Below are positions 6,721 through 32,667 of a stretch of DNA of 64,000 bases, piece after piece. The DNA comes from Prevotella sp. P5-108 (GTDB lineage Bacteria; Bacteroidota; Bacteroidia; Bacteroidales; Bacteroidaceae), in contig CAVDHB010000048.1 of assembly GCA_963608705.1 (NCBI GenBank), positions 3,664 to 67,663 on the forward strand, written 5' to 3'. Below the pieces are notes generated by a model, which searched no databases, was not told the DNA's origin, and saw only the letters and a program-made list of their open reading frames with translations. The first letter of the stretch is position 1; every line of letters begins with the position of its first letter. The position numbers and the translations under genes were made by a program.

Positions 6721-6722
6721 CT

Positions 6723-7460: not shown

Positions 7461-7500
7461 AAGGCTGACTAACTAGTGGATTGGATTTATTATATTATAG

Positions 7501-7719: not shown

Positions 7720-7793
7720 ACCCAGCAGTGGAGATTGCATCATTGTGAGCAGAGAATTGGGAGGAAGCGCATTTGAACCAATATGAACCAATT

Positions 7794-8000
7794 TTCTGTA
7801 TCTCTACATAAGAGATACAGAAATCGGCTGCAAATATATTAAAAATATTGCACATACAGTGAGTTGGGACGAAAAAAATAACTCACATTATCTTCCAAAA
7901 TTTATCGCTGTTTACTTTCTTTTACAGTTCGTGAGTCCCTTACTCGTACATTATCAATGAATTACATGGCATTCTGTATCTCTTATGTAGAGACGCGGAA
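7794..8000. promoter_or_regulatory. Putative invertible CPS promoter segment flanked by inverted recombination sites; -7 box TATATTTG on minus strand (7838-7831), OFF orientation
   Basis: Left site is 7794-7822, TTCTGTATCTCT-ACATA-AGAGATACAGAA. Right site is 7972-8000, TTCTGTATCTCT-TATGT-AGAGACGCGGAA. The spacers are reverse complements. The only TAnnTTTG match inside the segment is on the minus strand. Confidence 0.65.
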
Positions 8001-8256
8001 GAAACCGGGAAACATAACCCGATATGGCTTTCAAAAAGCAGAGCGTATGACACACAATTTGCTACTCACGGGCTTGTCCGCATCATGCATGCGGAAAGCT
8101 GAAAGACATAAAAGTATTGAAGATTAGTGGAAGTCAGTCTATTGGTTTTTCAATGCTGTGACACATCTCACACCCATGTAACTTGGAAAAGACGCTCTTT
8201 TCCGGGGAAGCCGGGATGTATTCTTCGCACAGCGCATTTTTCAAGTCGTTAACTTT

Positions 8257-10320: not shown

Positions 10321-10370
10321 GATACATGGCCAAGTATCTTAAGATACATCGCCAAGTATCCTAAGATACT
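10311..10370. repeat. Three tandem 22-bp units each containing the palindrome GTATC-N4-GATAC
   Basis: AGTATCCTAAGATACA (10311), AGTATCTTAAGATACA (10333), AGTATCCTAAGATACT (10355), with exact 22-bp phasing. The first copy overlaps the stop codon of the upxY-like gene. Confidence 0.85.
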
Positions 10371-10463
10371 TTGAAAAGTGACCCTAGACATAGAAAACAT
10401 GGAGGGGATTATTTGCAGATATGGGGATAAGTCCTTATCTTCGCAAAAAACAATCTTGACGGT

Positions 10464-12035
10464 ATGATGGAACGACGCAGAAAACTTTACCCCATAGGAA
10501 TACAGACTTTCTCGAACATACGGGAAGGCGACTATCTGTATATAGACAAGACGGAGTATGTGTACTGTATGGCCACATCTGACGCCAAGTACATATTCCT
10601 CAGTCGTCCACGCAGGTTTGGGAAATCTCTGCTCACCTCCACTCTGGAAAGTTATTTCTCCGGGAAAAAGGAATTGTTCAAAGGCTTGGCCATTGAGAAG
10701 CTGGAGAAGGAATGGACGGAATACCCAGTGCTTCACTTTGACATGAGCTTGGGTAAGTACATGGACAAGGAACAGCTGGAAGAATACTTGTGCTATCAGC
10801 TTCTTGACAAAGAATCTGCTTTTGGCATAACAAATCCTGTTAAAGGAACAAACAACCGTCTGACAAACCTTATCAAGACGGCATATAATAAGATCGGCAA
10901 GAAAGTCGTCATTCTCATAGATGAATATGACGCCCCTTTGCTCGATGTGGTGCATGAGGAGAAGAATCTCCCTGTCCTACGTGACGTGATGCGCAACTTC
11001 TACAGTCCGTTGAAAGGTTGCGACCCCTATTTGCGCTTCGTCTTCCTGACTGGAATAACGAAGTTCTCACAGCTCAGCATCTTCAGCGAGCTGAACAACA
11101 TCGACAACATCAGTATGGATGAGCGTTACGCTGCCGTATGTGGCATAACCGAAGAGGAGATGCTCACTCAAATGGACAACGACCTGAACCTGTTGGCGGA
11201 TAATTTGAAAATGACCAAGGAGGATGCTCTGTCAAAATTGAAGGAAAACTACGACGGCTATCACTTCACGTGGCCTTCCCCTGACATCTACAATCCTTTC
11301 AGTTTGCTCACGGCGTTGTCTAAAGGTAAGATCGGATCTTACTGGTTCGGTAGCGGAACTCCCACCTACCTGATAGAGATGCTGGCAAAATATCATGTCA
11401 CACCTCAGAGAATAGGCGGAATGAGTATTCCCGCCGATGCTTTTGATGCCCCGACAGAACGGCTGATAGATATATCACCACTGCTTTACCAAAGTGGATA
11501 TATCACCATCAAAGGCTATTCCTACATTACGGAGCTGTACACATTGGACATACCTAACAAGGAGGTGAGGGTAGGCTTGATGAAAAGCCTGCTTCCGAAT
11601 TATGTCAGCGTCCATACGAACATGGGGCTTTCCACAATAGGACAGATGTACGGGCGCATATATGAGGATGACATGGACGGAGCGTTAGAACTCTTGCAAA
11701 CATTTCTCTCCACCGTTCCCTATTGCGACCATACCGACTACGAGGGGCATTATCAGCAGATGCTCTACGTGATTTTCAGCATCTTGGGAATGTATACCGA
11801 TGTAGAGGTACGCACTCCTCGTGGAAGAGTAGACATAGTAATGCGTTCACCTCATACCTTATATATTATGGAGTTGAAACTCGACAAGGGTGCAGACGTG
11901 GCGATGAACCAGATAGACTTGAAGCAGTATCCTGAGCGTTTCCGCCTGTACAGACTGCCTATCGTTAAGGTGGGTATCAGTTTCGACAGCGGAACACACA
12001 CACTTGGGGAATGGAAGATTACGCAAGACGCTTAA
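10464..12035 (+). CDS. AAA-ATPase-like domain protein with C-terminal PD-(D/E)XK nuclease-like domain (PF09820/PF08011-type)
   Basis: YPIGIQTFSNIREGDYLYIDKTEY...SRPRRFGKSL N-terminus. C-terminal GRVDIVMRSPHTLYIMELKLDK (D..E.K). This family is very common in Bacteroides. Confidence 0.8.
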   Translation: MMERRRKLYPIGIQTFSNIREGDYLYIDKTEYVYCMATSDAKYIFLSRPRRFGKSLLTSTLESYFSGKKELFKGLAIEKLEKEWTEYPVLHFDMSLGKYMDKEQLEEYLCYQLLDKESAFGITNPVKGTNNRLTNLIKTAYNKIGKKVVILIDEYDAPLLDVVHEEKNLPVLRDVMRNFYSPLKGCDPYLRFVFLTGITKFSQLSIFSELNNIDNISMDERYAAVCGITEEEMLTQMDNDLNLLADNLKMTKEDALSKLKENYDGYHFTWPSPDIYNPFSLLTALSKGKIGSYWFGSGTPTYLIEMLAKYHVTPQRIGGMSIPADAFDAPTERLIDISPLLYQSGYITIKGYSYITELYTLDIPNKEVRVGLMKSLLPNYVSVHTNMGLSTIGQMYGRIYEDDMDGALELLQTFLSTVPYCDHTDYEGHYQQMLYVIFSILGMYTDVEVRTPRGRVDIVMRSPHTLYIMELKLDKGADVAMNQIDLKQYPERFRLYRLPIVKVGISFDSGTHTLGEWKITQDA

Positions 12036-12101
12036 ACTCTATGGAGCAGCCTTGAAAGCATGGAACAACTGTGGAAAAAAGCACGTTGAATCCTCTCATG
12101 T

Positions 12102-12551
12102 ATGTCCGAGATAATTTTCAATATATACGGAGGCAATAACCAAATCCTCCCCAATGCCGCTCATGCCGAGCAGCACTTCTACGGCGACGCTTTCGCGGAG
12201 GAACGACTCGTAAGAGAGAGCGTCGCGCCCCTTACGGCAGAGGAGAAGGCACTGTCCATCTATATAAACAAGGTGGAAAAGTTGCGTGGTTACATAGCCC
12301 TCCTTCGTTCCTGCAAGACCGCAGGGGATTTTGGCGAGGTGGTCGCCACGATGCGTCAGCAAGAGCCATCGCTCACCGACGAGCTGATAGTGAAGCGGCG
12401 TTTCCTCTCCCTTCTCCTTCCTTTTCTTCCCAAATGGGAAAAAGGGCGGAGCATAGACAACCTGCGGGTGGCTGTCAACAACGCATGGTCGGCTCGGAAG
12501 AAAACGCTTCATCCGACTGGTCGAACTGCCATTCAAAAGTCATGTAAGTGA
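12102..12551 (+). CDS. Hypothetical protein (149 aa)
   Basis: ATG-initiated ORF co-directional with neighbours, with plausible helical composition. An equal-length antisense ORF exists, so the strand choice is not certain. Confidence 0.5.
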   Translation: MSEIIFNIYGGNNQILPNAAHAEQHFYGDAFAEERLVRESVAPLTAEEKALSIYINKVEKLRGYIALLRSCKTAGDFGEVVATMRQQEPSLTDELIVKRRFLSLLLPFLPKWEKGRSIDNLRVAVNNAWSARKKTLHPTGRTAIQKSCK

Positions 12552-12658
12552 CTTTGCAAAGTTACGAAAGCGTTGATAGAATGAAATAATTATCTGAATG
12601 TTTGATTGTCTCAAATACAATTGTATATCTGTGTCAGATTTTAAAGATAAGACGTATT

Positions 12659-12883
12659 ATGGCAACTCAAGTGTTACGATTCAATCTCACTCAGCAAGCC
12701 GTGCTCAATGTGGTAGCTTGCTTACAATCTGAGCAAGATTTGGCAGATTTGAGACGGACTCTCGTTAAGTTCATGAACGAACGTATGCAGCGAGAAATGG
12801 ACAAATTGTGGGAATCCGGCTCTTGGTCTGAGGAAAGACTGGAATCCATGCGCTCTGAGCACCTACGAACCCTTTACAAATAA
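12659..12883 (+). CDS. Putative antitoxin partner of the PIN toxin (74 aa)
   Basis: Small helical ORF from ATG 12659 ending 7 nt before the PIN gene. The assignment is positional only. Confidence 0.5.
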   Translation: MATQVLRFNLTQQAVLNVVACLQSEQDLADLRRTLVKFMNERMQREMDKLWESGSWSEERLESMRSEHLRTLYK

Positions 12884-12890
12884 TTTACGT

Positions 12891-13304
12891 ATGAAAAGGC
12901 GTATTGTCTTGGATACAAATTGTTTGTTGCAGATAATTTCTCGCAAAAGCAAGAACTATTTCCTGTGGAATGGATTCTTGAATGGTGACTATTGGCTTTG
13001 TTATACGACAGAAGGAGTACGAAGAATTATAGGAACGAAAGCCAATCCAGTCATTGCTTCAATGGTGTTGAACATTATATGCGAAGCACCTAACACGTTA
13101 AGGGTTGACGCCCGTTATCATTGGAATCTGATTACGGAGGATTCGAATGACAATAAGTTTGTTGACTGTGCCATATTCTGTAATGCGGATTATATTGTTT
13201 CTGAAGATAAACATTTTAAGGTCTTGAAAAAAGTTAAATTTCTAAAAGTTTTCGTCATTCGATTAGAAGAATTTGCAAGACTGTTTAGAACACAAGAACA
13301 ATGA
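12891..13304 (+). CDS. PIN-domain toxin (TIGR00305-like)
   Basis: IVLDTNCLL N-terminal acidic motif and DNKFVDCAIFCNADYIVSEDKHF C-terminal motif. Confidence 0.75.
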   Translation: MKRRIVLDTNCLLQIISRKSKNYFLWNGFLNGDYWLCYTTEGVRRIIGTKANPVIASMVLNIICEAPNTLRVDARYHWNLITEDSNDNKFVDCAIFCNADYIVSEDKHFKVLKKVKFLKVFVIRLEEFARLFRTQEQ

Positions 13305-13747
13305 GGTTCTTTAAGCCATAGTTTAAAGGCAAAATCTGTACTGAACATATTATGTACGTTCGGGCTTTTGGCAAGTTGTAAATGTAAAGTAGTTGAAACA
13401 AATGCTCCGTCATGATTATAAGAAATGTACAGGCGAAGAACCCAAGTTCGTAAATGTATGGTAATATGAAAGAGCTATCAAGCGTTGAGAAATCGCTTAT
13501 TCAAATCATGGTTCGCATACGCTAATGAAAAAGACCAATACATGATAATGATGGCCAACGTGCGTGATTTGGAAGAAATGGACATTTATGCTGCTATGAT
13601 TCTGAGAAAAGACAACCCGCATTTTGTCGATTATATATCTGAATTCAGCAAGAATGTCAATATGTTTATGATAAAGTCAGAGTAAGAATCATATAAAACG
13701 AAGGCAACCCGATAGACTGTAATATTGTAGAGTACGCTGTCCAGCTA

Positions 13748-14034
13748 TTGACTACACTGCGCAATTCCATGCTCCACTTTGTCAGCGACGAAAGAGCGAA
13801 GATGGCTGCCACTTACCACAACATTATCAGTACGGTGAAGCTGCAAGGAAGGTCGGCATGGGATTATCTTGTAAAGTTTTTCGTTAATGTCTTTAACGGT
13901 TGCAGGGATTTTATCAGCCTACGGACAGACAATATCGGATTGGCAGTATGCTAATAGTTAATAAACACATTGAATTTTAACCACTCAATATATAGGCACC
14001 TATACAAGGGGTATGCCCTAATTTGAGTGCTTAC
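13748..14034 (+). mobile_element. IS66-family remnant: 3' end of transposase plus terminal inverted repeat
   Basis: LRNSMLHFVSDERAKMAATYHNIISTVKLQGRSAWDYLVKFF matches the conserved IS66 TnpC C-terminus (..NxLFxGSxxGA..YSLIxTCKLNG..YL..). The downstream sequence ends ..GAGTGCTTAC, the reverse complement of a GTAAGC-type IS66 end. No upstream transposase body is present. Confidence 0.65.
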
Positions 14035-14243
14035 TTTATGGGCGAGGAGGTGGATATCTCATTCTTGCCATGTGACTATGTTCGCCATTTTGAAGACGGC
14101 AAGGATGCAGAGGTCACTAAGCCATCCCAAGCTGTCGCTTGATTGTTAAATAATAAAAATCGAAACTTTATTCAAAAATACTGGTATAACTAACCCACTG
14201 ATAAATAGTGTGAACGCTGTATTGGTGGCTTACATTTTAAAAT

Positions 14244-14600
14244 ATGAAAATCATCTTAAATACAGAAAATACATTCCAAGCTGTAAAGTTGAGGGAACTG
14301 GTAATTAAAGGTATCAAGGGGGAAATAGAAAATATAAATATCAATACTTGGAGTTATACTAAGTCTGTTGAAAAATATGATATTGTTTTCCATAACCCAG
14401 AGCAATACTTAAACGATCCAGAAAAAAATGTACTTTTCAAATTAGATGTAGATGGTTCTTTTATCGTACTATCAATTGTATGGTGGAAGAAGAATCCTGA
14501 ACCTTCTGATGAAATGAAATGCTACCATGTAGGTAAGTTGGTAGAAATGCTGTTATGCCATTTTCGAAACAACTATATAAAACTTAGTATTGTTGACTAA
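14244..14600 (+). CDS. Hypothetical protein (118 aa), upstream partner of the HEPN-like gene
   Basis: AT-rich ATG ORF ending 11 nt before the next gene. No recognisable motif. Confidence 0.6.
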   Translation: MKIILNTENTFQAVKLRELVIKGIKGEIENININTWSYTKSVEKYDIVFHNPEQYLNDPEKNVLFKLDVDGSFIVLSIVWWKKNPEPSDEMKCYHVGKLVEMLLCHFRNNYIKLSIVD

Positions 14601-14611
14601 ATATAACGATT

Positions 14612-15922
14612 ATGGGTGCAAATATAGGAAACGAAGATATGAATCCCATCTTAGAAGAGGTTGTAAGTAATTTGAATAACTTTATAGAAAATATTAATTG
14701 CTTACGTGAAACATACGATTTCAGCAAAGGTATGCTTAATCAGCAATTACAATCTGCTACCAAAAGCTATGAGATTTTTATTGCTCCATTTCGTTCATTT
14801 GATGAAAAGGGTAATTTTCAGTTGGATGTTCCTATAGAAAAAATAAAAGAGTACAAGAAGTTATGCAAGAGAAAATGCCGTGCAGAAAAGGCTTTCCAAC
14901 TGATACCGCCTTCATATATTGTAACTTTGGTATCTTTATATGATACTTTTTTGGCTGGTTTTGTTAGGTGTATATATAGCTTGAAGGAAAGTTTGATTCT
15001 TGAAAGTAATATAAGCTTTAGTTTTCGGGATATAGCTGAATATGGCTCTATAAAAGAAGTAAAGAAGAACGTAATAGATAATACCATTGACAGACTATTT
15101 CGCGACTCGCATACGGAACAAATCGACTGGATAGAAAAAGCTATAGATGTTAAGACGTTGAAGCAATTTTCTGGATGGGCTTCTTTTGTTGAATTGACTG
15201 AGAGACGTAATCTTTTTGTTCATTCCGATGGAATGGTATCGTCTCAATATTTGAAAGAATGCAAAAAGTGCAATTATGACACTGATGGTATTGAGGTTGG
15301 AAGTAAACTCTTTGCTGATGATAGTTACTTCGAAAACTCATACAAATTACTTTATGAAATGTCTGTAATGATGACACAGATATTACTTAACAAGCTTTAT
15401 ATTGGTGTCTATACAAACGATACTGGGGTGCGAGATAAAATATTGATAGGTAATATCTATGAATTAATTAGCGAAAAACTTTACGATGTAGCTATTAATG
15501 TTTCGATGTTTGCTCGTGATGGAAAAAGTTTTAAGCGTAATAATAAAGATAGAACTTATATTGAGTTAAATTTGGCTCAAGCTTATAAATGGTCAGGGCA
15601 TAATGACAAATGCCTTGCAGTATTGAGGGATTTGGATACTAGCGCAATGAATCTTGACTTACAGATACCTAAGAAAGTGTTAGAAGAAAAATATGATGAG
15701 GTATATACTATGATGAAATCTTTAGGTTCAGGCAGTGATATACTTACCAAAGAGGCTTATCGTGAATGGCCAATATTCAAAGAAATAAGAAAGCAAGAGA
15801 AGTTCAAGAATGTATTTGAAATGATATTTGCAGAAAAATTATTATTACAGAATGTTCCAACCTCAGTGGAATCTTCTATAAAATGCAAGGATGAAATATC
15901 CTCAAGAGAAGTCGAATTATAA
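14612..15922 (+). CDS. HEPN-like (RNxxxH motif) protein with helical-repeat C-terminal region
   Basis: ELTERRNLFVHSDG contains R199-N-x3-H204 (nt 15206-15223), the canonical HEPN RNase motif in a helical context. The C-terminal ~170 aa looks TPR/helical-repeat-like. Confidence 0.6.
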   Translation: MGANIGNEDMNPILEEVVSNLNNFIENINCLRETYDFSKGMLNQQLQSATKSYEIFIAPFRSFDEKGNFQLDVPIEKIKEYKKLCKRKCRAEKAFQLIPPSYIVTLVSLYDTFLAGFVRCIYSLKESLILESNISFSFRDIAEYGSIKEVKKNVIDNTIDRLFRDSHTEQIDWIEKAIDVKTLKQFSGWASFVELTERRNLFVHSDGMVSSQYLKECKKCNYDTDGIEVGSKLFADDSYFENSYKLLYEMSVMMTQILLNKLYIGVYTNDTGVRDKILIGNIYELISEKLYDVAINVSMFARDGKSFKRNNKDRTYIELNLAQAYKWSGHNDKCLAVLRDLDTSAMNLDLQIPKKVLEEKYDEVYTMMKSLGSGSDILTKEAYREWPIFKEIRKQEKFKNVFEMIFAEKLLLQNVPTSVESSIKCKDEISSREVEL

Positions 15923-15934: not shown

Positions 15935-17473
15935 GTGTCAACTCAAACATCAGATAACAACAAACGAATAGCAAAGAACACGCTGCTGCTGTATGTGCGG
16001 ATGCTGTTCATGATGGCAGTGTTGCTGTACACAAGCCGTGTCATATTGAATACGCTGGGTGTGCAGGACTTCGGACTGTACAATGTCGTTGCCGGGTTCG
16101 TGACCATGTTCACGTTCATCAATACCGCCATGGCATCCGCCACACAACGGTATCTGAACTTTGAGCTTGGAAAGAATAATGATGAACGGCTGAGAAAAGT
16201 GTTCTCAACGAGCGTGAATATCCATGCGGTGATATCTTTGGTCATATTGCTACTTGCGGAAACCGTCGGGCTGTGGTTCGTATACACTCAACTGACAATT
16301 CCGAACGGGCGTATGGATGCCGTGCTTTGGGTCTATCAGTGTGCCATACTTTCCACTATCGTGTTGGTGATGAGCGTTCCGTACAATGCCGCAATCATCG
16401 CCCATGAAAAGATGGGGGCATTCGCCTACATATCCGTTGCGGAGGTTACTCTGAAACTGCTCATTGTCTACATGCTGACGATAGGCGATTTTGACAAACT
16501 GAAACTGTATGCCATACTGATGCTGGCTGTGCAGGTGTTTGTAAGAATCATATATGGCTGGTACAGCGGAAAGCATTTCAAGGAGACTAAGTATCATTGG
16601 ATATGGGACAAGGCGTTGTTCAAGGAAATGACAGGTTTTGCAGGGTGGAGCTTGTTCGGCAATCTTGCGGCTGTCGCTTTTACTCAAGGCGTGAACGTCC
16701 TGTTGAACATATTTTTTGGTCCAGTTGTCAATGCAGCCCGTGGTGTTACTGTGCAGGTACAGAATGCGATAATGAACTTCTGCCGCAATTTCCAGATGGC
16801 ATTGAACCCTCAAATTGTAAAACTCTATGCTTCTGATGAATTGGGAAGTATGCACAGACTGATATACCGCAGCACAAAGTTCTCGTTTTTCCTGTTGCTG
16901 TTACTCTCCCTTCCTGTCATGATAGAAGCGGACTATATATTAAAATTGTGGCTGAAAATTGTTCCCGAGCATACAGTCTCATTTGTCAGGATAATCCTTT
17001 GCATATCACTTGTTGATGCGATAGGCAATCCGCTGATAACAGCGGCACAGGCAAATGGCCATATCCGTAAATACCAGGCTGTGGTGGGCGGAATTCTTTT
17101 GGGCATAGTTCCAGTATCATACATCGTGTTGAAACTTGGCGCACCGCCAGTAGGCGTATTCATTGTACACTTCACAATGATCGTGTTGGCTCATGTCTCA
17201 CGTGTTTGGATGATACGCCCGATGATTTCGATGCGCATAAGGGAATATATCGTGAAAGCCATTCTTCCTTTGCTCTATGTGAGCGTTCCGTCAGTGCTTG
17301 TGTCAGTCATGGCGTTCATGCTGATGCCTGAAGGCTTCCTTGGCTTCATTGCCGTATGCCTCGTGTGCGCCTTGTCAGTATCTATGTTGACATACGTTCT
17401 TGGTTTTGACGCACATGAGCGTGAGTTCGTGAAAAGTAAAGTTGTCGGAATGCTTCAAAAGATACGCAAATGA
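15935..17473 (+). CDS. wzx: Wzx-type polysaccharide flippase (MOP superfamily)
   Basis: Multi-TM protein with conserved IAKNTLLLYVRMLFMMAVLLYTSRVILNTLGVQDFGLYNVVAG N-terminus. That region precedes the first in-frame ATG, so the GTG start at 15935 is implied. Confidence 0.85.
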   Translation: MSTQTSDNNKRIAKNTLLLYVRMLFMMAVLLYTSRVILNTLGVQDFGLYNVVAGFVTMFTFINTAMASATQRYLNFELGKNNDERLRKVFSTSVNIHAVISLVILLLAETVGLWFVYTQLTIPNGRMDAVLWVYQCAILSTIVLVMSVPYNAAIIAHEKMGAFAYISVAEVTLKLLIVYMLTIGDFDKLKLYAILMLAVQVFVRIIYGWYSGKHFKETKYHWIWDKALFKEMTGFAGWSLFGNLAAVAFTQGVNVLLNIFFGPVVNAARGVTVQVQNAIMNFCRNFQMALNPQIVKLYASDELGSMHRLIYRSTKFSFFLLLLLSLPVMIEADYILKLWLKIVPEHTVSFVRIILCISLVDAIGNPLITAAQANGHIRKYQAVVGGILLGIVPVSYIVLKLGAPPVGVFIVHFTMIVLAHVSRVWMIRPMISMRIREYIVKAILPLLYVSVPSVLVSVMAFMLMPEGFLGFIAVCLVCALSVSMLTYVLGFDAHEREFVKSKVVGMLQKIRK

Positions 17474-18717
17474 TTGACATAAAAGATAAGAAGGACTGCT
17501 GCGGCTGCTCTGCCTGTATGCAGCGTTGTCCTAAGCATTGCATTTCAATGCAGGAAGATGATGAGGGCTTTCTTTACGCAAAGGCGGATGCCTCACTTTG
17601 TATCCAATGTGGTTTGTGCGAGAAAGTATGCCCGTTGCTGAACCCTAAGGATAAGATTAGTCCGAAAGAAGTGCTTGCCGTGAAGAGCCGCAATGAGGAA
17701 GAGCGGTTGAAAAGCTCCTCCGGCGGTGTGTTCATCGCCTTGGCACGTGAAGTTATCGGCAATGGCGGCGTGGTATTCGGGGCTGTCTTTGATGAGAGCT
17801 GGGAAGTCCATCATGTCTATGCCGAACGTATTGAGGATGTCTATCCGATGATGGGCAGCAAGTATGTACAGAGCCGGATAGAAAACACGTTCAAGGAAGC
17901 TGAAGGATTCTTGAAGAAAGGACGCTTGGTTCTGTTCACTGGCAGTCCTTGTCAGATAGCCGGGCTTCGCTCATTCCTCCGCATCAAAGACTATCCCAAC
18001 CTGCTTGCCATCGATTTCCTATGCCATGGTGTACCGAGTCCCGGTGTTTGGAGGCGGTATCTTGCCGAGACATACAGTAGTTGGAGACCAGACAAAGATA
18101 ATAAAAGCCGCCTTCAGGCGGCCGCTGGAAAAAATACCGTTTTACTTTCTCTAAACACGATGTCCCCGATAGGGGGCGTCTCGTTTAGAGACAAATCGAC
18201 TGGCTGGAAAAAATACCGTTTTGTCGTCCGTGGAAAGTCCGCCTCCAAGGCGGACCAAAATTCCGTTTTGTCGTCCGATATACACTATGATAACGCTTAT
18301 ATGCGTGGATTCCTTAACGATGTCTACCTCCGTCCATCATGTTACGAATGCCGTTGTAAGAACGGTGCGAACCACAGCGACCTGACCATAGCCGACTATT
18401 GGGGCGCACGAGTGACTGATCAGGACTTCGATGACGACAAAGGATTGGGACTTGTGCTTGTCAACACTGACAAAGGTAAGGCTTATTTCGACTGCCTTGA
18501 TATGGATTTCCGCAAGATAACCATGGAAAAGGCACACCTCTGCAACGGTGGCTTCAACGAGCATACCAAACCGCATCCGAAGCGAGAGAAGTTCTTTGCA
18601 ATGATTGAGGATGGGGAAACAATACACTCAGCCGTTGATGGATGTCTGCATGTTAGTTTCAGTAAAATGTTGCTGGCTAAGGTGAAAGGTATAATGAAAC
18701 GATTGAGAGGCATATAG
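17470..18717 (+). CDS. 4Fe-4S / coenzyme F420 hydrogenase beta-subunit-like (FrhB-like) protein, copy 1
   Basis: Two ferredoxin motifs (CCGCSACMQRCP, CIQCGLCEKVCP) followed by an FrhB/FdhB-type domain. The start overlaps the wzx stop (ATGA). Confidence 0.85.
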   Translation: MIDIKDKKDCCGCSACMQRCPKHCISMQEDDEGFLYAKADASLCIQCGLCEKVCPLLNPKDKISPKEVLAVKSRNEEERLKSSSGGVFIALAREVIGNGGVVFGAVFDESWEVHHVYAERIEDVYPMMGSKYVQSRIENTFKEAEGFLKKGRLVLFTGSPCQIAGLRSFLRIKDYPNLLAIDFLCHGVPSPGVWRRYLAETYSSWRPDKDNKSRLQAAAGKNTVLLSLNTMSPIGGVSFRDKSTGWKKYRFVVRGKSASKADQNSVLSSDIHYDNAYMRGFLNDVYLRPSCYECRCKNGANHSDLTIADYWGARVTDQDFDDDKGLGLVLVNTDKGKAYFDCLDMDFRKITMEKAHLCNGGFNEHTKPHPKREKFFAMIEDGETIHSAVDGCLHVSFSKMLLAKVKGIMKRLRGI

Positions 18718-18739
18718 AAATATATTTAGAATGCATCAA

Positions 18740-18774
18740 TTTGGGTGCTTAATATTGGTATTGCCCTAAGTTTG
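18740..18774 (+). promoter_or_regulatory. Candidate internal promoter for the DUF262/DUF1524 gene
   Basis: TAAGTTTG (18767-18774) fits the TAnnTTTG -7 box, 28 nt before ATG 18802. A TTTG at 18740-18743 gives a 23-nt spacer, longer than the 19-21 optimum. Confidence 0.4.
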
Positions 18775-18801
18775 TAATTTGTTTATTCAAATTATATTGT
18801 T

Positions 18802-20535
18802 ATGAATATCAAGCCTGCTGATAAAACAATAAAAGCTCTTCTAAAATCAGGCCGTAAATTTATGATACCACGATTTCAGAGAGATTACTCTTGGGAAAAG
18901 AAAAATTGTGAAGAGTTCCTTGAAGATATAATTAAGGGATTAATTTATAAAAACGGTAAGTTAGGAACTTCTTCATATTTTTTGGGAACAATGCTTTTCA
19001 TTGGTAACTTTGATGAGAAAAGTGATAAAGAAATTCAAATTGTAGACGGACAACAACGCATTACAACAATAACAATATTGTTTTCGGTTATTTCCGATAT
19101 TTTTAGAGAAAAGGGTGAAGAGAAATTAAGTGAATTGATTTTCAGCTATATAATGACAAGTGATGATGATGGGAATTCTGTCAGAATTATAAAAAGTGAA
19201 AGTAGTTACCCATATTTTGCTTTTTATATCCAAGATAGAGAAAAAACGCAAATGCCTGAACCATCGTCTGAAGAAGAATTATGTATTCAAAGTACGTATA
19301 AGTTGTTTAAAAACCGTTTGGATGAGAAAAACCTAAAATCCTTTTTGGAAAAGAACTGTGAGAACTTTGATGTTGGTGTTGGACTTATTGAAATACTAAA
19401 GGCTATAAGAGACCAAATTTTGAATTGTATATTTATTTCAATATCTACAGATGACAAATTACAGGCTTATAGAATTTTTGAGATTCTTAATGCAAAAGGT
19501 AAAAAACTCGCAGCAATAGATTTGATTAAAAATAGATTGTTTGAGAAACTTCCCCAAACAGAACCTGCCGATTTTGCGAAATGCAAATGGGATGAACTAA
19601 AAAGAATAATAAACGAGTGTGATGTGGCTTCCGTTGGGATAGGGACTTTTTACCGACATTTTTGGAATTCTTGTTACAAACAAACTGGGACAAATCAATT
19701 GTATGACAAATTCTTGTCAATGATTAATAAAAGTGATTATGAATCGTTCCTTAATTCTTTGGTTGTTAATGCAAAATATTATGTACAAATAATAAAGCCT
19801 TTAAGAGAAAATTACGAAAATAGGAAAGAGTATTTTTGGCTAGTACAAAGTTTTAAAGTCCTTTCTGATTACTTCGGAATTGCACAAGTTCGTGTCGTAT
19901 TGATGGCATTGTTATGGGCGAAAGACAACAACCGCATATTCACTGCAGATTTTAAGCAATCAATCTTGTTTTTAGAACATTTCCATTTCGCTTATACTGC
20001 TTTATTATCTGGCAAGGCAAATAAACTTGATGGTATTTATTCAAAATTCGCAATAGCTTTAAGGAAAAGTAACAGTAAAAATCAAAGTAAGCAGATAATA
20101 AAGACGAATCTTTATGACTGCTTGAAAGTATTGCTTCCAACTGAAGAACAGTTTACAGAAAAATTTTTATCTCTTAGTTATAGTAAAAAGTCTGCGCCAT
20201 CTAATATGAAGTGCAAATATGCACTTCTTAAATTGAACTGCTATTATCAAGGAAAGGAAATTTTTGAAGATGACTCTTCAATAGAGCACATCATCCCTGA
20301 GTGTGAAGAAAGTGATGCCAATAACATTGGCAATTTAATTATATTAGAACAAAAATTGAATACAGAAGCCGATAAAAAGGATTATTCTGAAAAACAGCTG
20401 ATATATAAAAAATCTAATTACAAATGGATTAGAAAATTTTCAGAAACGCATCCATCATGGATACAAGATATGATAAATGATAGGGCTAAAGAAATGGCGA
20501 CTTTATTTTACAATAAGATTATCGTCTTCAATTAA
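18802..20535 (+). CDS. DUF262/DUF1524 (GmrSD-like) putative type IV restriction/nuclease protein
   Basis: N-terminal FMIPRFQRDYSWEKKN and VDGQQRITT (DUF262/ParB-like). C-terminal SIEHIIPE...NIGNLIILEQKLNTEA (DUF1524 His-Me finger). Confidence 0.85.
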   Translation: MNIKPADKTIKALLKSGRKFMIPRFQRDYSWEKKNCEEFLEDIIKGLIYKNGKLGTSSYFLGTMLFIGNFDEKSDKEIQIVDGQQRITTITILFSVISDIFREKGEEKLSELIFSYIMTSDDDGNSVRIIKSESSYPYFAFYIQDREKTQMPEPSSEEELCIQSTYKLFKNRLDEKNLKSFLEKNCENFDVGVGLIEILKAIRDQILNCIFISISTDDKLQAYRIFEILNAKGKKLAAIDLIKNRLFEKLPQTEPADFAKCKWDELKRIINECDVASVGIGTFYRHFWNSCYKQTGTNQLYDKFLSMINKSDYESFLNSLVVNAKYYVQIIKPLRENYENRKEYFWLVQSFKVLSDYFGIAQVRVVLMALLWAKDNNRIFTADFKQSILFLEHFHFAYTALLSGKANKLDGIYSKFAIALRKSNSKNQSKQIIKTNLYDCLKVLLPTEEQFTEKFLSLSYSKKSAPSNMKCKYALLKLNCYYQGKEIFEDDSSIEHIIPECEESDANNIGNLIILEQKLNTEADKKDYSEKQLIYKKSNYKWIRKFSETHPSWIQDMINDRAKEMATLFYNKIIVFN

Positions 20536-20559
20536 TAAACAAATGAGTTCAATAAACAA

Positions 20560-21672
20560 ATGAAAATTGGAATACTCACCCTGCCGTTGCATACCAACTA
20601 CGGCGGGATACTTCAGGCGTATGCCCTTCAGACCGTACTTGAACGCATGGGCCATGAGGTGGTTGTGTTTGACACTCCAAAGGAATGGTGGCATCTGCCT
20701 TTGTGGAAAGCTCCGTTGGTTTATGGTAAACGCTTCCTGAAAAAATGCTTAATAGATAAAAGCACTGAGATATTTGTTGAACGAAAACAGACCAAGGAAT
20801 ATCCTATAGTCAGCCAATACACATCAGAATTTATAAAGAAGTACATTCATATCAAGGCTATAGTGGATTTCTCTGAACTGAAGGAAAATGATTATGATTG
20901 TATTGTGGTTGGCAGTGACCAAGTTTGGCGGCCCAAATATTTCCCTTCTGACATATCTGAGGCGTATCTGAAGTTCGCTGAAGATTGGAATATAAAGAGG
21001 ATAGCATATGCAGCCTCATTCGGGACGAATGAATGGGAATACACATCGGAACAGACGGCGGAATGCACAAAGTTAATAAAAATGTTCGATGGTGTATCCG
21101 TTCGAGAGGATTCTGCCGTTGGCTTGTGCCGTAAGTACTTCGGAATGGAGGTTAAACACGTATTAGACCCTACTATGCTATTGCGTAAAGAGGATTATGT
21201 AAGACTCTTTGAAAACGCCAACACACCGAAGAGCAAAGGAACACTGTTGTGCTATGTATTGGATGAAACTTCTGAAAAGATAGCATTGATTCAGAAAATT
21301 GCCGAAGAGCGAAACCTCATCCCTTTCCGTGTGAACTCAAAAGTGGAAGACCCTTCAGCCCCCTTAAATGAGCGGATACAGCCTCCCGTTGAGCAGTGGC
21401 TGAGGGGATTTTATGATGCGGAGTTCGTTGTGACCGACTCATTCCATGCCTGCGTGTTCTCGATTCTGTTTGGAAAACAGTTCTTGGTTATCGGCAACAA
21501 AGAAAGGGGACTTTCACGGTTTGGGTCTCTGTTGGAGATGTTGGGGTTGGAGGATAGAATGGTTACAAGAGAACATGAAAATCTGGAAGACATAGATTAT
21601 ACGAAAGTCTACGAACTGCTATCGAACAAAAGAAGATATTCTACAGACTTGTTGAATGAATTCAACAAGTAG
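20560..21672 (+). CDS. Polysaccharide pyruvyl transferase, copy 1
   Basis: KIGILTLPLHTNYGGILQAYALQ N-terminus and VVTDSFHACVFSILFGKQF motif. Confidence 0.85.
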   Translation: MKIGILTLPLHTNYGGILQAYALQTVLERMGHEVVVFDTPKEWWHLPLWKAPLVYGKRFLKKCLIDKSTEIFVERKQTKEYPIVSQYTSEFIKKYIHIKAIVDFSELKENDYDCIVVGSDQVWRPKYFPSDISEAYLKFAEDWNIKRIAYAASFGTNEWEYTSEQTAECTKLIKMFDGVSVREDSAVGLCRKYFGMEVKHVLDPTMLLRKEDYVRLFENANTPKSKGTLLCYVLDETSEKIALIQKIAEERNLIPFRVNSKVEDPSAPLNERIQPPVEQWLRGFYDAEFVVTDSFHACVFSILFGKQFLVIGNKERGLSRFGSLLEMLGLEDRMVTREHENLEDIDYTKVYELLSNKRRYSTDLLNEFNK

Positions 21673-26959: not shown

Positions 26960-27796
26960 ATGGCAAAAGAGAAGATAAAAAGGAAAAACGTTGAGATGGC
27001 ATTTATTAATGTCGTTCTTTATCCAACAGAAAAGCAAAAACCTGAAGAGTATGTAAAATTGCTCTATTCCATTATGGCTGGTCGTGTGATGATAAATAGT
27101 CGAAATTCATACCGTTCAACATTGCTACGAGCTTTTGATTTTGAGGGTGATTATTATCACGGTTACTTTTGTAATGCCATATTTCTAAAGGATGATTTCT
27201 GGGCGTTAAATATTAGAGATAATCTGCTTGAAGAGGCAGTTATTGATCCTAATAAGGTATTAGATCCCAAGTATATGGAATTTTGGTTTTATCCTAAATA
27301 TCATAGGTTTGCTGTTCGTAAATCGGACGTTACGAAAATTGTAAAATTCTTGATTGGCAGTTTTAAATTCAAGTTGGGAGATGAAGATAGTTTTGCTGTC
27401 AATATAGAAAAGGATAAGAATATAATTGAAAGAATAATCAATTCAGAAGGCATAGTAAAGATAAAGATTTCCATTAGATATTCCAATAATGACAATTGTG
27501 AGGACTGGGAAGATTTGGATTCAGTATTACGTAATTCGGATACGAATAAGGCAGAATTATCTTTGCAATCAAGCAATGCTAAGCCAATACAGGCTAAAAA
27601 GAATTGGTTGTTGAGAGCCTTTTTGGTTCTAAGTAAATCTTATGGTACAGCTACAGCCAAAATTATCAACGAAAATGGATACATAGAAGATGTAGATACG
27701 AAAAGGTATCCAAATACACGTACAGTAGATTTCAATCAAAACCCAGAAAAAGACATAAGAGATTGCATTGAGGGTATCGCGCAAAATAAAGTATAG
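26960..27796 (+). CDS. DUF4747-like cytoplasmic protein (no glycan-enzyme motif)
   Basis: AFINVVLYPTEKQKPEEYVKLLYSI N-terminus, L-PKYMEFWFYPKYHRFAV, and IKISIRYSNNDNCEDWED. These resemble my recollection of the DUF4747 layout, but this is unverified. No TM or signal peptide. Confidence 0.5.
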   Translation: MAKEKIKRKNVEMAFINVVLYPTEKQKPEEYVKLLYSIMAGRVMINSRNSYRSTLLRAFDFEGDYYHGYFCNAIFLKDDFWALNIRDNLLEEAVIDPNKVLDPKYMEFWFYPKYHRFAVRKSDVTKIVKFLIGSFKFKLGDEDSFAVNIEKDKNIIERIINSEGIVKIKISIRYSNNDNCEDWEDLDSVLRNSDTNKAELSLQSSNAKPIQAKKNWLLRAFLVLSKSYGTATAKIINENGYIEDVDTKRYPNTRTVDFNQNPEKDIRDCIEGIAQNKV

Positions 27797-27798
27797 TT

Positions 27799-28380
27799 AT
27801 GGGGATAAGGAAACCACCTACATTGCAATCAAAAGGATGGAGTGGCTTTAATTTTGTCTACTTTAAGTTTTGCGGAAAACAGTTTAGGCATTCACTTCGG
27901 TGGGCAAGTTGTGCTGTTGTTCTTGCTTTTATTGTATCTGTGCTGTCTCCAAAACCGTATTATGATTTATTAGTTGTTTTGACTAGTATCGGTCTGAAGG
28001 TTGCACCCCCACTTTTAGGCTTTACTCTTTCCGGGTATGCATTGGTTATAGGCGTAAACGATGCCAATGTTTCAGAACGATTGAAGAGATACAAAACAAA
28101 AACAGGTATTACAATGTATCAGCAGCTTTATACTACCTTCATAGCCATGCTTGGATCAATATTTCTACTGCTGGTAGAAAGTGTCATATTGCACTACGCT
28201 TTGGAATCAGGTATCATGTTGTCCAATTCTATTGTAGTTGGTATTGTTAATATTAGTATCTTTTTAATATATTCGTTCACTATGTTTTATGCCTTGTTTG
28301 CAGTCAAAGATTTACTGTCAAATTTATTTAGTCTAGGACAGACAATTAATAACATTCATCAAGAGACACATAAACAATAA
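27799..28380 (+). CDS. Small 4-TM membrane protein (193 aa), translationally coupled to the upstream gene
   Basis: The start is 2 nt after the upstream stop. There are four hydrophobic helices (AVVLAFIVSVL; LLVVLTSIGLKVAPPLLGFTLSGYALVIGV; FIAMLGSIFLLLVESVILHYAL; VVGIVNISIFLIYSFTMFYALFAV). Confidence 0.7.
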   Translation: MGIRKPPTLQSKGWSGFNFVYFKFCGKQFRHSLRWASCAVVLAFIVSVLSPKPYYDLLVVLTSIGLKVAPPLLGFTLSGYALVIGVNDANVSERLKRYKTKTGITMYQQLYTTFIAMLGSIFLLLVESVILHYALESGIMLSNSIVVGIVNISIFLIYSFTMFYALFAVKDLLSNLFSLGQTINNIHQETHKQ

Positions 28381-29614: not shown

Positions 29615-30417
29615 TGAAAAGAATTATACCATTCTTCGTCTTTTTGTTCTCACTAAGCGTTAGTGGATTTGGACAGGATATTTTTGAAGAAAAGCCAGCT
29701 TTTGAGGAACATTTCACAAGCAAGGAAATCAATAAGAGCATTTGGGGATTCAGCAAAGAGCAGTCTGGTTCTCTTCCATTCTATAATGGGGATAATAAGC
29801 GTAATGTCAAAGTAAAAAAAGGAAAACTTTATCTAACCCTAAGGAAGAATAGTCCTGATGAAGGGGAAAAATCGTATACTTCTGGAAGACTTTATACGAA
29901 GAAGTTCTATCGATATGGAAAGTTCGAGATACGAGCGAAAATGCCAAGTATAAACGGTATATGGGCGGCTATTTGGTTCAGAGCTAATTGGTCCAGAACC
30001 AAGGATGGTCCTGCTTGTCGTGGAGAAGTAGACTTGATGGAATGTTTTGTAAAGAACGGAAACTACAAGAAATGGAATGTGAACGTTCATTTATGGGGAA
30101 ATATAGAAGGAAAAACTAATAGTCATAGTCAGTATCCTTATTCGGTAATGTGCGATATTTCCAAGTATCATGTTTATACACTGGAAATCGCACCAAATAA
30201 AGTCGTCTTTAAAATTGAAGGGAATATTGTACGTACTGTGAGGAGAGGTGATATACCAGAATGGCCATTCGGAAATAATGAGTATCAGCTACTATTGGCT
30301 TTGTCCTATGGTGGTTGGGATAAAAATAAAATAACAAATGATGCACGGCTTCCTCAGACAATGAAGGTTGACTATGTGAAATATTACAAGTTGAAAGGAG
30401 AATACGAAAATGATTGA
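29611..30417 (+). CDS. Secreted glycoside hydrolase family 16
   Basis: Signal peptide MMKRIIPFFVFLFSLSVSGFG. GRLYTKKFYRYGKFEIRAKMP..GIWAAIWF, and GEVDLMEC matching the GH16 ExDxxE catalytic motif. Confidence 0.8.
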   Translation: MMKRIIPFFVFLFSLSVSGFGQDIFEEKPAFEEHFTSKEINKSIWGFSKEQSGSLPFYNGDNKRNVKVKKGKLYLTLRKNSPDEGEKSYTSGRLYTKKFYRYGKFEIRAKMPSINGIWAAIWFRANWSRTKDGPACRGEVDLMECFVKNGNYKKWNVNVHLWGNIEGKTNSHSQYPYSVMCDISKYHVYTLEIAPNKVVFKIEGNIVRTVRRGDIPEWPFGNNEYQLLLALSYGGWDKNKITNDARLPQTMKVDYVKYYKLKGEYEND

Positions 30418-31594
30418 ACTTGCCTCGCATGAAACTTGTACAGGATGTACAGCCTGTATGAACAGTTGTAAGCATGGCGCAATAGAAATGAAGCCAGACA
30501 ATGAAGGTTTCCTTTTTCCCAGTATAGATACAGCGAAATGTATCGAATGTGGGTTGTGCCAAAAGCGTTGTCCGGTTCTTCAGTCCTCAGAAAGTGGGAA
30601 TTTTGACAAGCCTAAGGCTTTTGCTTTATACAGTGAGGAATACAGGAGAGTAAGTAGTTCTGGCGGAGCGTTCTCTGTATTTGCCAGATGGACTTTTGCC
30701 AAGAATGGTGTGGTATATGGAGCAGCTTTCGATGAGAATCTGTTTTGTCGACACATAAAGGCGAATACGATGGATGAACTCTCCCCAATAAGAGGTAGTA
30801 AGTATGTGCAAAGTAATATTGGAAATGTATTTGGAGAAATAAGAGATGCACTTAGGCAAGGAACACAAGTCCTGTTTACAGGCACTCCCTGTCAAGTGGC
30901 AGGTTTAAAAGAGTTCCTGCATAAATCTTACGACAATCTCTTAACATTGGATCTTACTTGTCATGGTGTTCCGTCTAACTCAGTCTTTCAGTCTTATATT
31001 GAAAGATTATCGACCCGATTCACTGGAAAAATATCATTTTTTGAATTTCGTCGGAGAGATGGATGGGGATTTGCCCCGTCTATATCTTTTGGGGGTAAAT
31101 TGCAACCAATATATGATGTGGACAATCTGTATATGTGTGCTTTTGACCGTGCCGCTTTGTTTAGAAAATCATGTTATGCTTGTCCTTATGCAAAATTACC
31201 ACGAGTTGGGGATTGCACTATTGCTGATTTTTGGGGTATCGGTCGGTATGGAAAACCATTTAAGCATAATCTTCTCAAAGGCGTTTCGCTTGTTCTTGCT
31301 AATAACGAAAAAGGTTTAGCAGCGGTGAATGCTTTGCAAGACTCTTTTATTGAAGAAAGAGATTTGCATGAAGCTTTAATAGAAAATTATAATATAACCC
31401 ATCCTTCTGCTATTTACAAGGATAGGGATGCCATTATATCTGCTTTTCTTGATAAGAGATTAAGTCTAAATGACATTGATGAGAAGTTTCATTTAGTAGA
31501 TAAAAGTCTAAAAGGCAGAATTAAGAAATATGCGACAAAGTACCATGTGTTTGATTTCGTAAAAGCCATATACAATAAATACAAAACATTATGA
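30410..31594 (+). CDS. 4Fe-4S / FrhB-like protein, copy 2
   Basis: CTGCTACMNSCKHGA and CIECGLCQKRCP, followed by an FrhB-type domain colinear with copy 1. Confidence 0.85.
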   Translation: MIELASHETCTGCTACMNSCKHGAIEMKPDNEGFLFPSIDTAKCIECGLCQKRCPVLQSSESGNFDKPKAFALYSEEYRRVSSSGGAFSVFARWTFAKNGVVYGAAFDENLFCRHIKANTMDELSPIRGSKYVQSNIGNVFGEIRDALRQGTQVLFTGTPCQVAGLKEFLHKSYDNLLTLDLTCHGVPSNSVFQSYIERLSTRFTGKISFFEFRRRDGWGFAPSISFGGKLQPIYDVDNLYMCAFDRAALFRKSCYACPYAKLPRVGDCTIADFWGIGRYGKPFKHNLLKGVSLVLANNEKGLAAVNALQDSFIEERDLHEALIENYNITHPSAIYKDRDAIISAFLDKRLSLNDIDEKFHLVDKSLKGRIKKYATKYHVFDFVKAIYNKYKTL

Positions 31595-32667
31595 GAATAG
31601 GAATACTATCCATGCAGGAAGTGAAGAATTATGGATCATTTCTTCAGGCATACTCATTGAAAAGGAATATTGAAGCACTGGGACACAAATGCGAATTTAT
31701 TAATATTATTCCTGGAGAACAGCTCGGAGATTACAAGATTAGCAAGTTCCATAAACTGCGTTTGTTGATTGAAAGGTTGTGGGGATGGGATTTTGCGAAA
31801 CGTTTCAAGTACATCTATCAGTTTCAAAGTAGGTTCTCGAAAGAGTTCTTGCCTGAATTGGGAGTAAGGCCTGGTGCTACTATTGGACATTTCGATACCG
31901 TTGTCATAGGCAGTGACGAGGTTTTCAATTGTGCCCAAAAGACATGGTTCGGATTCTCAAAACAATTGTTTGGTGAGGGGCTGGATGCCAATAAAGTAAT
32001 TACTTACGCTGCATCCTTTGGGGCGACGACTGTTTCAAAGTTGGAAAAATTGGGCATCAAGGACACGGTGGCTCAATTATTAAAGAAGCTGGATGTTATT
32101 TCCGTAAGAGATAAAAATAGTGCGGAAGTCGTTGAAATGTTGACAGGTGGCGTTCCAAGTAGAAACGTTGACCCTGTCTTTATTTATGACTATACCAAGC
32201 ACATGCCGACTTCGGTAGACTTGAAAGACTATATGATAGTTTACACTTATCCTGGACGTATTACAGACAAGAATGAAATTAAAGCCATTCGTGCATACGC
32301 TAAAAGCAAAGGTTTGCTATTGGTAAGTATTGGTCATTACTTTTCTTGGTGTGACAAGACGATTGTCCCTCATCCGTTTGAAGTACTCGCTTATTTTAAA
32401 AATGCTGAATGTATCGTAACAGATACATTCCATGGTTCTGTATTCTCTATCAAGTTCAATAAGCAATTCTGCACGATTGTGCGTGGCATGAACAGTAATA
32501 AACTTACTTATCTGTTGGAGCAGTTCGGCTTGTCTGGACGCATAATTAATGATGTTAACGAATTGCCTTCAATTATGGAAAGAGATATAGACTATTCTCT
32601 CGTGAATACGAAAATAGCTCATGAGAAAGAGCGTTCCATCGCTTACCTGAAAGAAAACCTATCATAA
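31591..32667 (+). CDS. Polysaccharide pyruvyl transferase, copy 2
   Basis: RIGILSMQEVKNYGSFLQAYSL and IVTDTFHGSVFSIKFNKQF. ATGA overlap with FrhB-like copy 2. Confidence 0.85.
   Translation: MRIGILSMQEVKNYGSFLQAYSLKRNIEALGHKCEFINIIPGEQLGDYKISKFHKLRLLIERLWGWDFAKRFKYIYQFQSRFSKEFLPELGVRPGATIGHFDTVVIGSDEVFNCAQKTWFGFSKQLFGEGLDANKVITYAASFGATTVSKLEKLGIKDTVAQLLKKLDVISVRDKNSAEVVEMLTGGVPSRNVDPVFIYDYTKHMPTSVDLKDYMIVYTYPGRITDKNEIKAIRAYAKSKGLLLVSIGHYFSWCDKTIVPHPFEVLAYFKNAECIVTDTFHGSVFSIKFNKQFCTIVRGMNSNKLTYLLEQFGLSGRIINDVNELPSIMERDIDYSLVNTKIAHEKERSIAYLKENLS

Follow-up and report, generated by a model that had tools for sequence, protein, structure and literature searches.

The window analysed here, a stretch of 64,000 nucleotides (nt) from Prevotella sp. 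P5-108 (GenBank assembly GCA_963608705.1, contig CAVDHB010000048.1, positions 3,664 to 67,663), carries a co-directional capsular polysaccharide (CPS) locus at ~7.8-33.4 kb, in which a gene for a full-length GmrSD-family (DUF262/DUF1524) nuclease with intact catalytic motifs lies between the genes for an FrhB-like protein and a polysaccharide pyruvyltransferase (PvT). From our point of view it is likely that this gene represents a defence nuclease which is carried as exchangeable cargo in a slot of a phase-variable Bacteroidales capsule operon, is probably co-transcribed with that operon, and is not part of glycan synthesis. Taken by itself, the gene is an ordinary new member of the known HEC-06/GmrSD family; the context, namely an operon-internal slot in capsule loci, is the more interesting result.

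Gene identity and conserved motifs

The intact open reading frame (ORF) encodes a protein of 577 amino acids (aa) that is matched in Pfam by GmrSD_N (DUF262, PF03235; 1.6e-37, residues 10-247) and GmrSD_C (DUF1524, PF07510; 1.1e-13, residues 446-567), which bears out the GmrSD-like assignment made in a first-pass annotation of this DNA. The gene had been placed there at 18740-20535. Its end at 20535 stands, but the true start is at 18802, because the N-terminus beginning with MNIKP is conserved among homologues; the start in the public database, 18862, is too short. Exact-sequence look-ups of the protein with either the 18802 or the 18862 start returned no match, and NCBIfam holds no model for the gene or for its unannotated CPS neighbours.

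In PADLOC, the highest-ranking models were those of HEC-06 (Hma-embedded candidate 06), with PDLC04154 as the best profile (6.3e-74; residues 3-567 aligned to positions 7-558 of the 569 in the profile) and further matches to PDLC04157 (9.1e-70) and PDLC04155 (2e-62). Models named 'Orf5' ranked second, while SspE models reached 1e-22 at best and mREase_IV, on the N-terminal domain, 7e-13. In an alignment of 23 homologues with identities down to 52%, residues D82-R86 of the DGQQR motif and E495, H496, N511, E516 and N520 of the His-Me finger core (EHIIPE...NIGNLIILEQKLN) are invariant; a loss of nuclease residues in homologues, which the first-pass annotation had named as a result that would speak against its reading, was hence not found. 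The length of the ORF, which is free of frameshifts, agrees with the 574-584 aa of the aligned close relatives, among which the database call of P0037 begins 13 residues downstream.

HEC-06 is an experimentally validated GmrSD-like single-gene anti-phage defence, in which protection was abolished by mutations in DGQQR (second Q, R) or in EHICP (E, H) (Payne et al., bioRxiv 10.1101/2024.01.29.577857). The positions that are essential in HEC-06 are present and invariant in the window protein as Q85, R86, E495 and H496, where the correspondence was set from the motifs rather than from a direct alignment with the assayed protein. The two share an end-to-end match of hidden Markov models, the DGQQR and EH(I/C)xP nuclease motifs, and the state of a single gene nested co-directionally within a larger multi-gene locus. 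They differ in that HEC-06 was defined inside Hma or other defence systems, whereas the host locus of the window gene is a capsule biosynthesis operon. The comparison holds at the level of profiles and motifs, and by analogy the window copy would act in defence as well.

One further observation concerns the gene itself. In the Logan assembly SRR13434651, the sole other public sample with this organism, a contig break (end of L001, start of L002) falls inside the GmrSD gene at window positions ~19111-19135, which may reflect strain heterogeneity or low local coverage.

A discrete insertion between the FrhB-like gene and the PvT gene

Comparison with related loci (designated here by L numbers) revealed that GmrSD is variably present at the FrhB/PvT junction and by no means universal there. 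The closest flanks are those of L100 (88%, 85% and 71% aa identity for flippase, FrhB and PvT, respectively), whose junction is occupied by a toxin-antitoxin pair, MNT (NTP_transf_2)/HepT. In L101 and L102 (83%, 79% and 68%), the FrhB-PvT spacing is 9 nt and the junction is empty, and in L103-106 (60%, 66% and 67%) there is a gap of 345 nt with no called gene. As the nucleotide homology between the window and L100 begins at 15944, halts at 18702 and restarts at 20552, the cargo can be delimited to about 18703-20551, i.e., 1.85 kb that comprise a single gene together with 84 nt of leader and 24 nt of trailer. Judged from these alignments, the GmrSD gene is an accessory gene that was inserted as a discrete unit at the FrhB/PvT junction, as had been claimed at the outset.

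Two of the arguments originally put forward for the insertion did not hold, however. One was the second FrhB-like/PvT pair of the same locus, taken as a second copy of the cassette: its genes do overlap by 4 nt (ATGA) and carry no cargo in between, but they are distant paralogues of the first pair (37% identity for FrhB, 28.5% for PvT) and cannot serve as an empty-site comparator. The other was the contrast in guanine-plus-cytosine (GC) content, given as ~30% for the gene against ~55% for both flanks. The value for the gene is correct (30.7%), but those of the flanks are 48.5% (FrhB) and 42.9% (PvT). We rejected GC as a marker of a discrete insert because most of the CPS locus is equally AT-rich, with 28-36% GC at 14.0-15.9 kb and 22-30 kb, and the flanks are the exception: the block of flippase (46%), FrhB and PvT is the outlier within the CPS locus, near the ~47-52% of the window backbone. 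In homologous loci, the GC content of GmrSD is in line with that of its neighbours, with 35.5% vs 33-35% in L003 and 30% vs 37-39% in L009.

An imperfect inverted repeat brackets the GmrSD ORF in the window (18777-18807 vs 20531-20566; 24 of 31 positions match, with a perfect core of 11 nt), and its score was reached in none of 300 shuffles of the border windows, the test being post hoc. The right-hand core is duplicated as the direct repeat AATAAACAAATGA, of which the first copy lies at the GmrSD stop and the second includes the ATG of PvT; homologous genes of the other loci lack this repeat at their borders. With its 1.85 kb lacking a recombinase and conserved terminal repeats, the cargo does not resemble an insertion sequence, a miniature inverted-repeat transposable element or an integron cassette. 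Conserved border repeats or attachment sites were thus rejected, save for the unexplained inverted repeat that occurs in the window only.

Recurrence of the slot in related capsule loci

The closest GmrSD homologues (72-79% identity) are all found in CPS loci, on the operon strand and nearly always directly 5' of PvT. The FrhB/PvT junction holds GmrSD alone in L009-L016, where it overlaps PvT by ATGA, and a 113-aa gene, AbiTii and GmrSD in L112-L114. In L020, it is filled by a mini defence island of 7.8 kb (3846-11608) that consists of two DarT genes, DarG (3.5e-108), a PDDEXK_2 (Rpn-like) gene, GmrSD and a KAP NTPase (PADLOC candidate PDC-S49), with 6/6 genes co-oriented with the capsule genes. 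At the junction of L042 (8001-9170), an ORF of 169 aa, which over its first 148 residues is 90% identical to the N-terminus of the window GmrSD, precedes a stretch that is homologous to the 3' end of the KAP NTPase gene and adjoins PvT on its 5' side; this cargo appears to be a decayed derivative of the GmrSD-KAP pair that arose by internal deletion.

Other enzyme genes can form the left side of the junction. In L003-L008 and L021, a PtuA-like AAA_21 ATPase, GmrSD and KAP lie between an acyltransferase and PvT, and in L024/L025 AbiTii and GmrSD lie between a dehydrogenase and PvT; L022/L023 carry the PtuA-like AAA_21 ATPase followed by GmrSD, with no PvT gene detected downstream. Across the eight Bacteroidales contexts tabulated, all of the cargo genes (20/20) are on the operon strand. 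Homologues with 60-62% identity likewise occur in polysaccharide loci, either directly after a UpxY-like gene (L107-110) or together with a TIR-domain gene and several DUFs (L111), and the clade members in L107 and L111 do not adjoin PvT. At ~52% identity, the neighbourhoods are, as far as their gene content tells, ordinary defence contexts: a Dam methyltransferase and an AlwI restriction endonuclease in a Lachnospiraceae genome, a type III restriction-modification system on a metagenome contig, and an AbiEii-like ATPase in a Treponema genome. A scan of genome contigs yielded only three homologues, all at ~52% (Treponema, Lachnospiraceae, Flavobacterium), and no orthologous genome. On this comparative evidence, the junction is an operon-internal slot with interchangeable defence and toxin-antitoxin cargo and not the site of a one-off insertion.

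Separate histories of cargo and flanks

The identity of GmrSD to the window copy is flat, at 74-79%, while the identity of the flanks across the same loci ranges from 44 to 88%. Likewise, the GmrSD/KAP pairs of L003 and L020 are 90%/86% identical, whereas their neighbouring PvTs share only 42%. Because the identity of GmrSD (and KAP) is decoupled from that of the flanks, cargo and flanks have separate histories. At the DNA level, homology between loci does not extend beyond the coding sequence, except for a stretch of leader, about 45 nt at most, that members of the same sublineage share.

For pairs within sublineages whose synonymous sites are unsaturated, the ratio of nonsynonymous to synonymous divergence (dN/dS) is 0.04-0.16, which points to purifying selection of considerable strength on the clade. 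The synonymous sites of the window copy are saturated against all of its relatives (proportion of synonymous differences, pS, 0.78-0.87) at a dN of 0.13-0.18, which marks it as an old lineage of its own rather than one transferred recently.

Predicted structure and relation to known systems

The AlphaFold model of the protein (predicted local distance difference test, pLDDT, 83) places both GmrSD domains in one polypeptide, joined by a helical region at residues ~219-483, and the modelled fold resembles that of the solved members. The only significant matches of the model in the Protein Data Bank (PDB) are DndI (9JFL), SspE and BrxU, at a template modelling score of about 0.4, a value which, for models of flexible multi-domain proteins such as this one, is to be expected. 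Among solved proteins, DndI and SspE match best, both by sequence (phmmer 4.3e-13 over residues 1-539) and by structure (Foldseek 2.3e-14), and BrxU follows with an E-value of 9.6e-5 and 14% identity in the structural alignment.

With the type IV enzymes Eco94GmrSD, EcoCTGmrSD and BrxU (PDB 7P9M), the window protein shares the order of DUF262, linker and DUF1524, the DGQQR motif and the His-Me finger. It differs from them by its low sequence similarity, and PADLOC favours HEC-06/Orf5 far above mREase_IV. The modifications on which GmrSD/BrxU-type enzymes depend are glucosylated 5-hydroxymethylcytosine (glc-hmC), 5-hydroxymethylcytosine (hmC) and 5-methylcytosine (5mC); that the window protein would likewise act on modified DNA, as proposed in the first-pass annotation, is a prediction at the level of the family. 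DndI (PDB 9JFL) and SspE (PDB 6JIV/7DRR), in turn, are GmrSD-like nucleases that sense phosphorothioates and are partnered with the modification genes dndBCDE or sspABCD; SspE is, moreover, ~770 aa long, and its sequence match is confined to the DUF262 part. By analogy with GmrSD, BrxU, SspE, DndI and HEC-06, nucleotide binding and hydrolysis by the N-terminal ParB-like DUF262 NTPase domain (DGQQR) would most likely license the C-terminal HNH-like DUF1524 His-Me finger domain, which could then cut or nick invading, probably modified, DNA of phages or mobile elements. The trigger may be a base modification of the phage, as with GmrSD and BrxU, or may be tied to phosphorothioation, as with SspE and DndI.

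The slot as a whole can be compared with defence islands, integration hotspots and 'embedded' defence genes, with which it shares a single junction that differs in its defence or toxin-antitoxin cargo from strain to strain and may also be empty or decayed. In contrast to these, it is located inside a biosynthetic operon, between two enzyme genes, with all cargo co-oriented and with no integrase, tRNA or mobile-element borders.

The surrounding capsule locus

The features of the locus are compiled in Table 1. It has the make-up of a Bacteroidales phase-variable CPS operon, namely a candidate invertible promoter, a UpxY-type ORF (as a weak match) and co-directional flippase, polymerase and glycosyltransferase genes. 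Between the inverted repeats of the candidate promoter, the only TAnnTTTG is the -7 box TATATTTG on the minus strand (7831-7838), and in this assembly the promoter seems to point away from the operon and looks OFF. The first ORF of the operon is unusually long for a UpxY protein, the usual size of which is about 170-230 aa. Further CPS genes downstream, all on the plus strand, encode an EpsG-type polymerase, GT2 and GT4 glycosyltransferases, an acetyltransferase, a GH16 protein and a WecG-type transferase. For a protein of the window backbone, the closest named relatives, at 64% identity, belong to Prevotella and Segatella, which suggests a sparsely sampled and probably Prevotellaceae-like member of the Bacteroidales; cluster look-ups of backbone proteins gave singletons.

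Table 1. Positions of the GmrSD gene, its motifs and borders, and the main elements of the CPS locus in the window
Feature	Position	Strand	Remarks
Candidate invertible CPS promoter	7794..8000	.	29-nt inverted repeats 7794-7822 / 7972-8000, 149 nt apart, 90% match
First operon ORF, 687 aa	8257..10320	+	UpxY/NusG-like N-terminus (residues ~2-190), weak, below curated cut-offs; ~500-aa extension without family match
Wzx-like flippase	15935..17473	+	left part of the 46-48% GC block common to L100 (88% aa identity) and L101 (83%)
FrhB-like Fe-S protein	17470..18717	+	Fer4 + FrhB_FdhB_N/C; left (5') flank of cargo slot
Cargo leader, 84 nt	18718..18801	+	TAAGTTTG 18767-18774; TTTG 18740-18743; left arm of imperfect inverted repeat (18777-18807)
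GmrSD-family / HEC-06-like putative defence nuclease gene	18802..20535	+	577 aa, intact ORF
DGQQR motif, DUF262 ParB-like NTPase domain	19045..19059	+	residues 82-86; invariant in 23 homologues
His-Me finger nuclease core of DUF1524, EHIIPE...NIGNLIILEQKLN	20284..20361	+	E495, H496, N511, E516, N520 invariant
Right cargo border	20534..20563	+	13-nt direct repeat AATAAACAAATGA twice (20534-20546, 20551-20563), 17 nt apart; L100/L101 homology restarts 20552-20560
Polysaccharide pyruvyltransferase (PvT)	20560..21672	+	right (3') flank of cargo slot
Second FrhB-like/PvT pair	30410..32667 (30410-31594 / 31591-32667)	+	4-nt ATGA overlap, no cargo

Genes without an evident role in glycan synthesis also occur elsewhere in the locus. 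The ~5.6 kb from the UpxY-like ORF to the flippase (10317-15922) encode a protein of the AAA-ATPase_like+PDDEXK_9 type (10464-12035) and a PIN_3 toxin-like product (12891-13304), the gene of which follows an ORF of 93 aa. Neither Pfam, PADLOC, NCBIfam nor PHROGs gave a match for two further ORFs of low GC in this region (14244-15922; 118 aa and 436 aa). At the corresponding position, L100 has a VapE-like/DUF3874 gene and L101 one for PDDEXK_2, and upstream of the L009 flippase there are genes for a Dam methyltransferase, an AAA_23 ATPase, a DndB-domain protein and a 433-aa protein of no known function; in the window, this region may be a second cargo zone. A third non-glycan insert may be represented by two genes at 26960-28380 between a hexapeptide acetyltransferase and a GT1 gene of the operon; one encodes a DUF4747 protein (278 aa), the other a protein of 193 aa with no known function, and neither has a PADLOC match. 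DUF4747 matches a PHROG of unknown function, and for the ORF at 27799-28380 no useful match was obtained in Pfam, PADLOC or PHROGs. Just 3' of the CPS locus, a second PIN_3 gene (34446-34850, minus strand) and a gene for a ResIII/Helicase_C protein with a C-terminal WG repeat (35443-37653, plus strand), which matches the helicase regions of PADLOC mREase_IV (1.3e-30) and PbeA, are by their domain matches additional defence-like genes that flank the locus.

Expression of the gene and alternative explanations

Read-through from the CPS promoter is probably the most economical reading of GmrSD expression, and transcription from this invertible promoter seems most likely because the cargo is co-oriented with the operon, the junctions are short or overlapping, and no convincing terminator flanks the gene (the terminator-like candidates are weak, with stems of 5-7 bp and poor T tracts). 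One could imagine instead that the same nuclease has an autonomous Bacteroides-type promoter in its 84-nt leader, and that the CPS locus merely houses a constitutive immunity. The first-pass annotation had leaned in this direction when it pointed to a -7 box and proposed that the gene may be expressed even with the CPS promoter OFF. The box, TAAGTTTG, does exist, 35 nt upstream of the ATG, and could, with the TTTG further upstream, drive transcription independent of the CPS promoter; the 84-nt spacer also exceeds that of coupled homologues. However, TAnnTTTG is a common motif in the window (73 occurrences vs 46 expected, with three more inside the GmrSD gene), and the spacing between TTTG and the box is 23 nt, compared with 19-21 nt between the -33 and -7 elements in the Bacteroides consensus. 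Of the 10 homologous genes examined, none has such a box at a similar distance upstream, and the one in L003 alone, 14 nt before the ATG, is too close for promoter action. Homologues are, moreover, packed 1-45 nt from their neighbours in L009-type, L024/25 and L112-type loci, and overlap PvT by 4 nt in L009-type loci and L024/25. A conserved internal promoter was rejected because the box is not kept upstream of homologues, and we regard an autonomous promoter of the window copy as rather unlikely, although a weak internal promoter may act in this copy in addition to the CPS promoter. A sigma-70 promoter scan, the model of which is not applicable to Bacteroidetes, gave matches at shuffle level (17 vs 13.6).

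Every member of the clade with at least 58% identity and an examined context resides in a polysaccharide locus, mostly just 5' of PvT and in some cases coupled to it in translation, which could hint at a role of the GmrSD protein in the capsule, e.g., in nucleotide handling for pyruvylation. Such a role is nevertheless extremely improbable, given that the closest FrhB/PvT orthologues lack GmrSD or have a toxin-antitoxin pair in its place, that the second FrhB/PvT pair of the same locus does without it, that the nuclease motifs are invariant, that the co-resident cargo is of defence types (DarTG, AbiTii, the KAP NTPase matching PDC-S49, the PtuA-like ATPase), and that the members in L107 and L111 stand away from PvT and the 52% homologues in restriction-modification contexts. 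A homing-like, selfish HNH element, aimed at the sequence 5' of PvT and of no benefit to the host, would account for the same position relative to PvTs that are only 41-51% identical between lineages, and for the 31-nt imperfect inverted repeat around the window copy. Yet unrelated, nuclease-free cargo (MNT/HepT, DarTG) at the same junction indicates that the site and not the gene defines the hotspot, other loci have no border repeats, the saturated synonymous sites between lineages argue against a recent spread, and purifying selection is strong along the full length of the protein, including the NTPase domain; to our knowledge, no GmrSD-family member acts as a homing enzyme, and we consider this explanation highly improbable. 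The truncated copy in L042 demonstrates that cargo does decay at this junction, and the window lineage offers no close relative for a direct measurement of selection, so one might see in the gene a passenger without activity, which has stayed intact by chance or fell silent only recently. Against this stand the full length of 577 aa with no frameshift, the retention of all invariant family residues and a dN of 0.13-0.18 to relatives at saturated dS, and we judge it to be quite improbable.

Several observations weigh against a defence nuclease that is exchanged in a phase-variable operon, besides the box in the leader discussed above. The window copy is, in our comparison, a lone lineage, for which purifying selection is deduced from its intact length and motifs, and the hotspot is supported by about a dozen distinct metagenome loci and not by a systematic census. 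Regarding the exchange step, the cargo showed neither an integrase or transposase nor a conserved border site, and the border inverted repeat is absent from 9 homologous loci and occurs in the window copy only. As for the target, the nearest structural relatives, DndI and SspE, sense host phosphorothioation and not glucosyl-hmC, and no Dnd or Ssp domains were detected among the ~40 window ORFs scanned (positions 3-37653), with the genes at 37.8-64 kb lying outside the scan; of the homologous loci, L009 has its DndB-domain gene upstream.

An exchangeable defence cargo remains, from our point of view, the likely explanation, and could operate as follows. Depending on the locus, the slot is empty or is occupied by GmrSD, AbiTii+GmrSD, DarTG+PDDEXK_2+GmrSD+KAP NTPase, MNT/HepT or decayed remnants. 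The cargo is probably swapped through recombination in the conserved flanking CPS genes; the 5' ends of all PvT genes are nearly identical, ATGA(G/A)AAT(A/T/C)GGAAT. Transcription of GmrSD from the invertible CPS promoter would then let immunity co-vary with capsule type.

Implications for capsule variation and phage defence

Capsule phase variation is the best-documented route of phage escape in gut Bacteroidales, and intracellular defence is usually treated as a separate layer. One could speculate that Bacteroidales capsule operons hold dedicated slots (the FrhB/PvT junction, and further non-glycan genes between UpxY and the flippase) which exchange anti-phage and toxin-antitoxin genes under an invertible, UpxY-antiterminated promoter, such that each phase state switches on its own intracellular defences; we put this forward tentatively, as a generalisation that may or may not hold. 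In the literature, we found no description of defence genes inside Bacteroidales CPS operons, nothing that joins DUF262 with both capsular polysaccharide and Bacteroidales, and nothing that joins DarTG with Bacteroides and capsule, although absence from the searchable literature is no proof of novelty.

If dedicated slots exist, they would tie receptor variation to immunity within a single bet-hedging unit, and would let defence genes pass from species to species by hitch-hiking on recombination of CPS loci. Should defence genes routinely be embedded in and co-transcribed with capsule operons, the immune repertoire of a cell would depend on the capsule it displays, and CPS recombination would reshuffle its content of defence genes. 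Predictions of defence systems that ignore CPS loci, or experiments with deletions of whole CPS loci, would in this case confound effects of the capsule with those of defence. The FrhB/PvT junction could, furthermore, anchor the discovery of unknown defence genes, for instance among the unannotated ORFs of the cargo.

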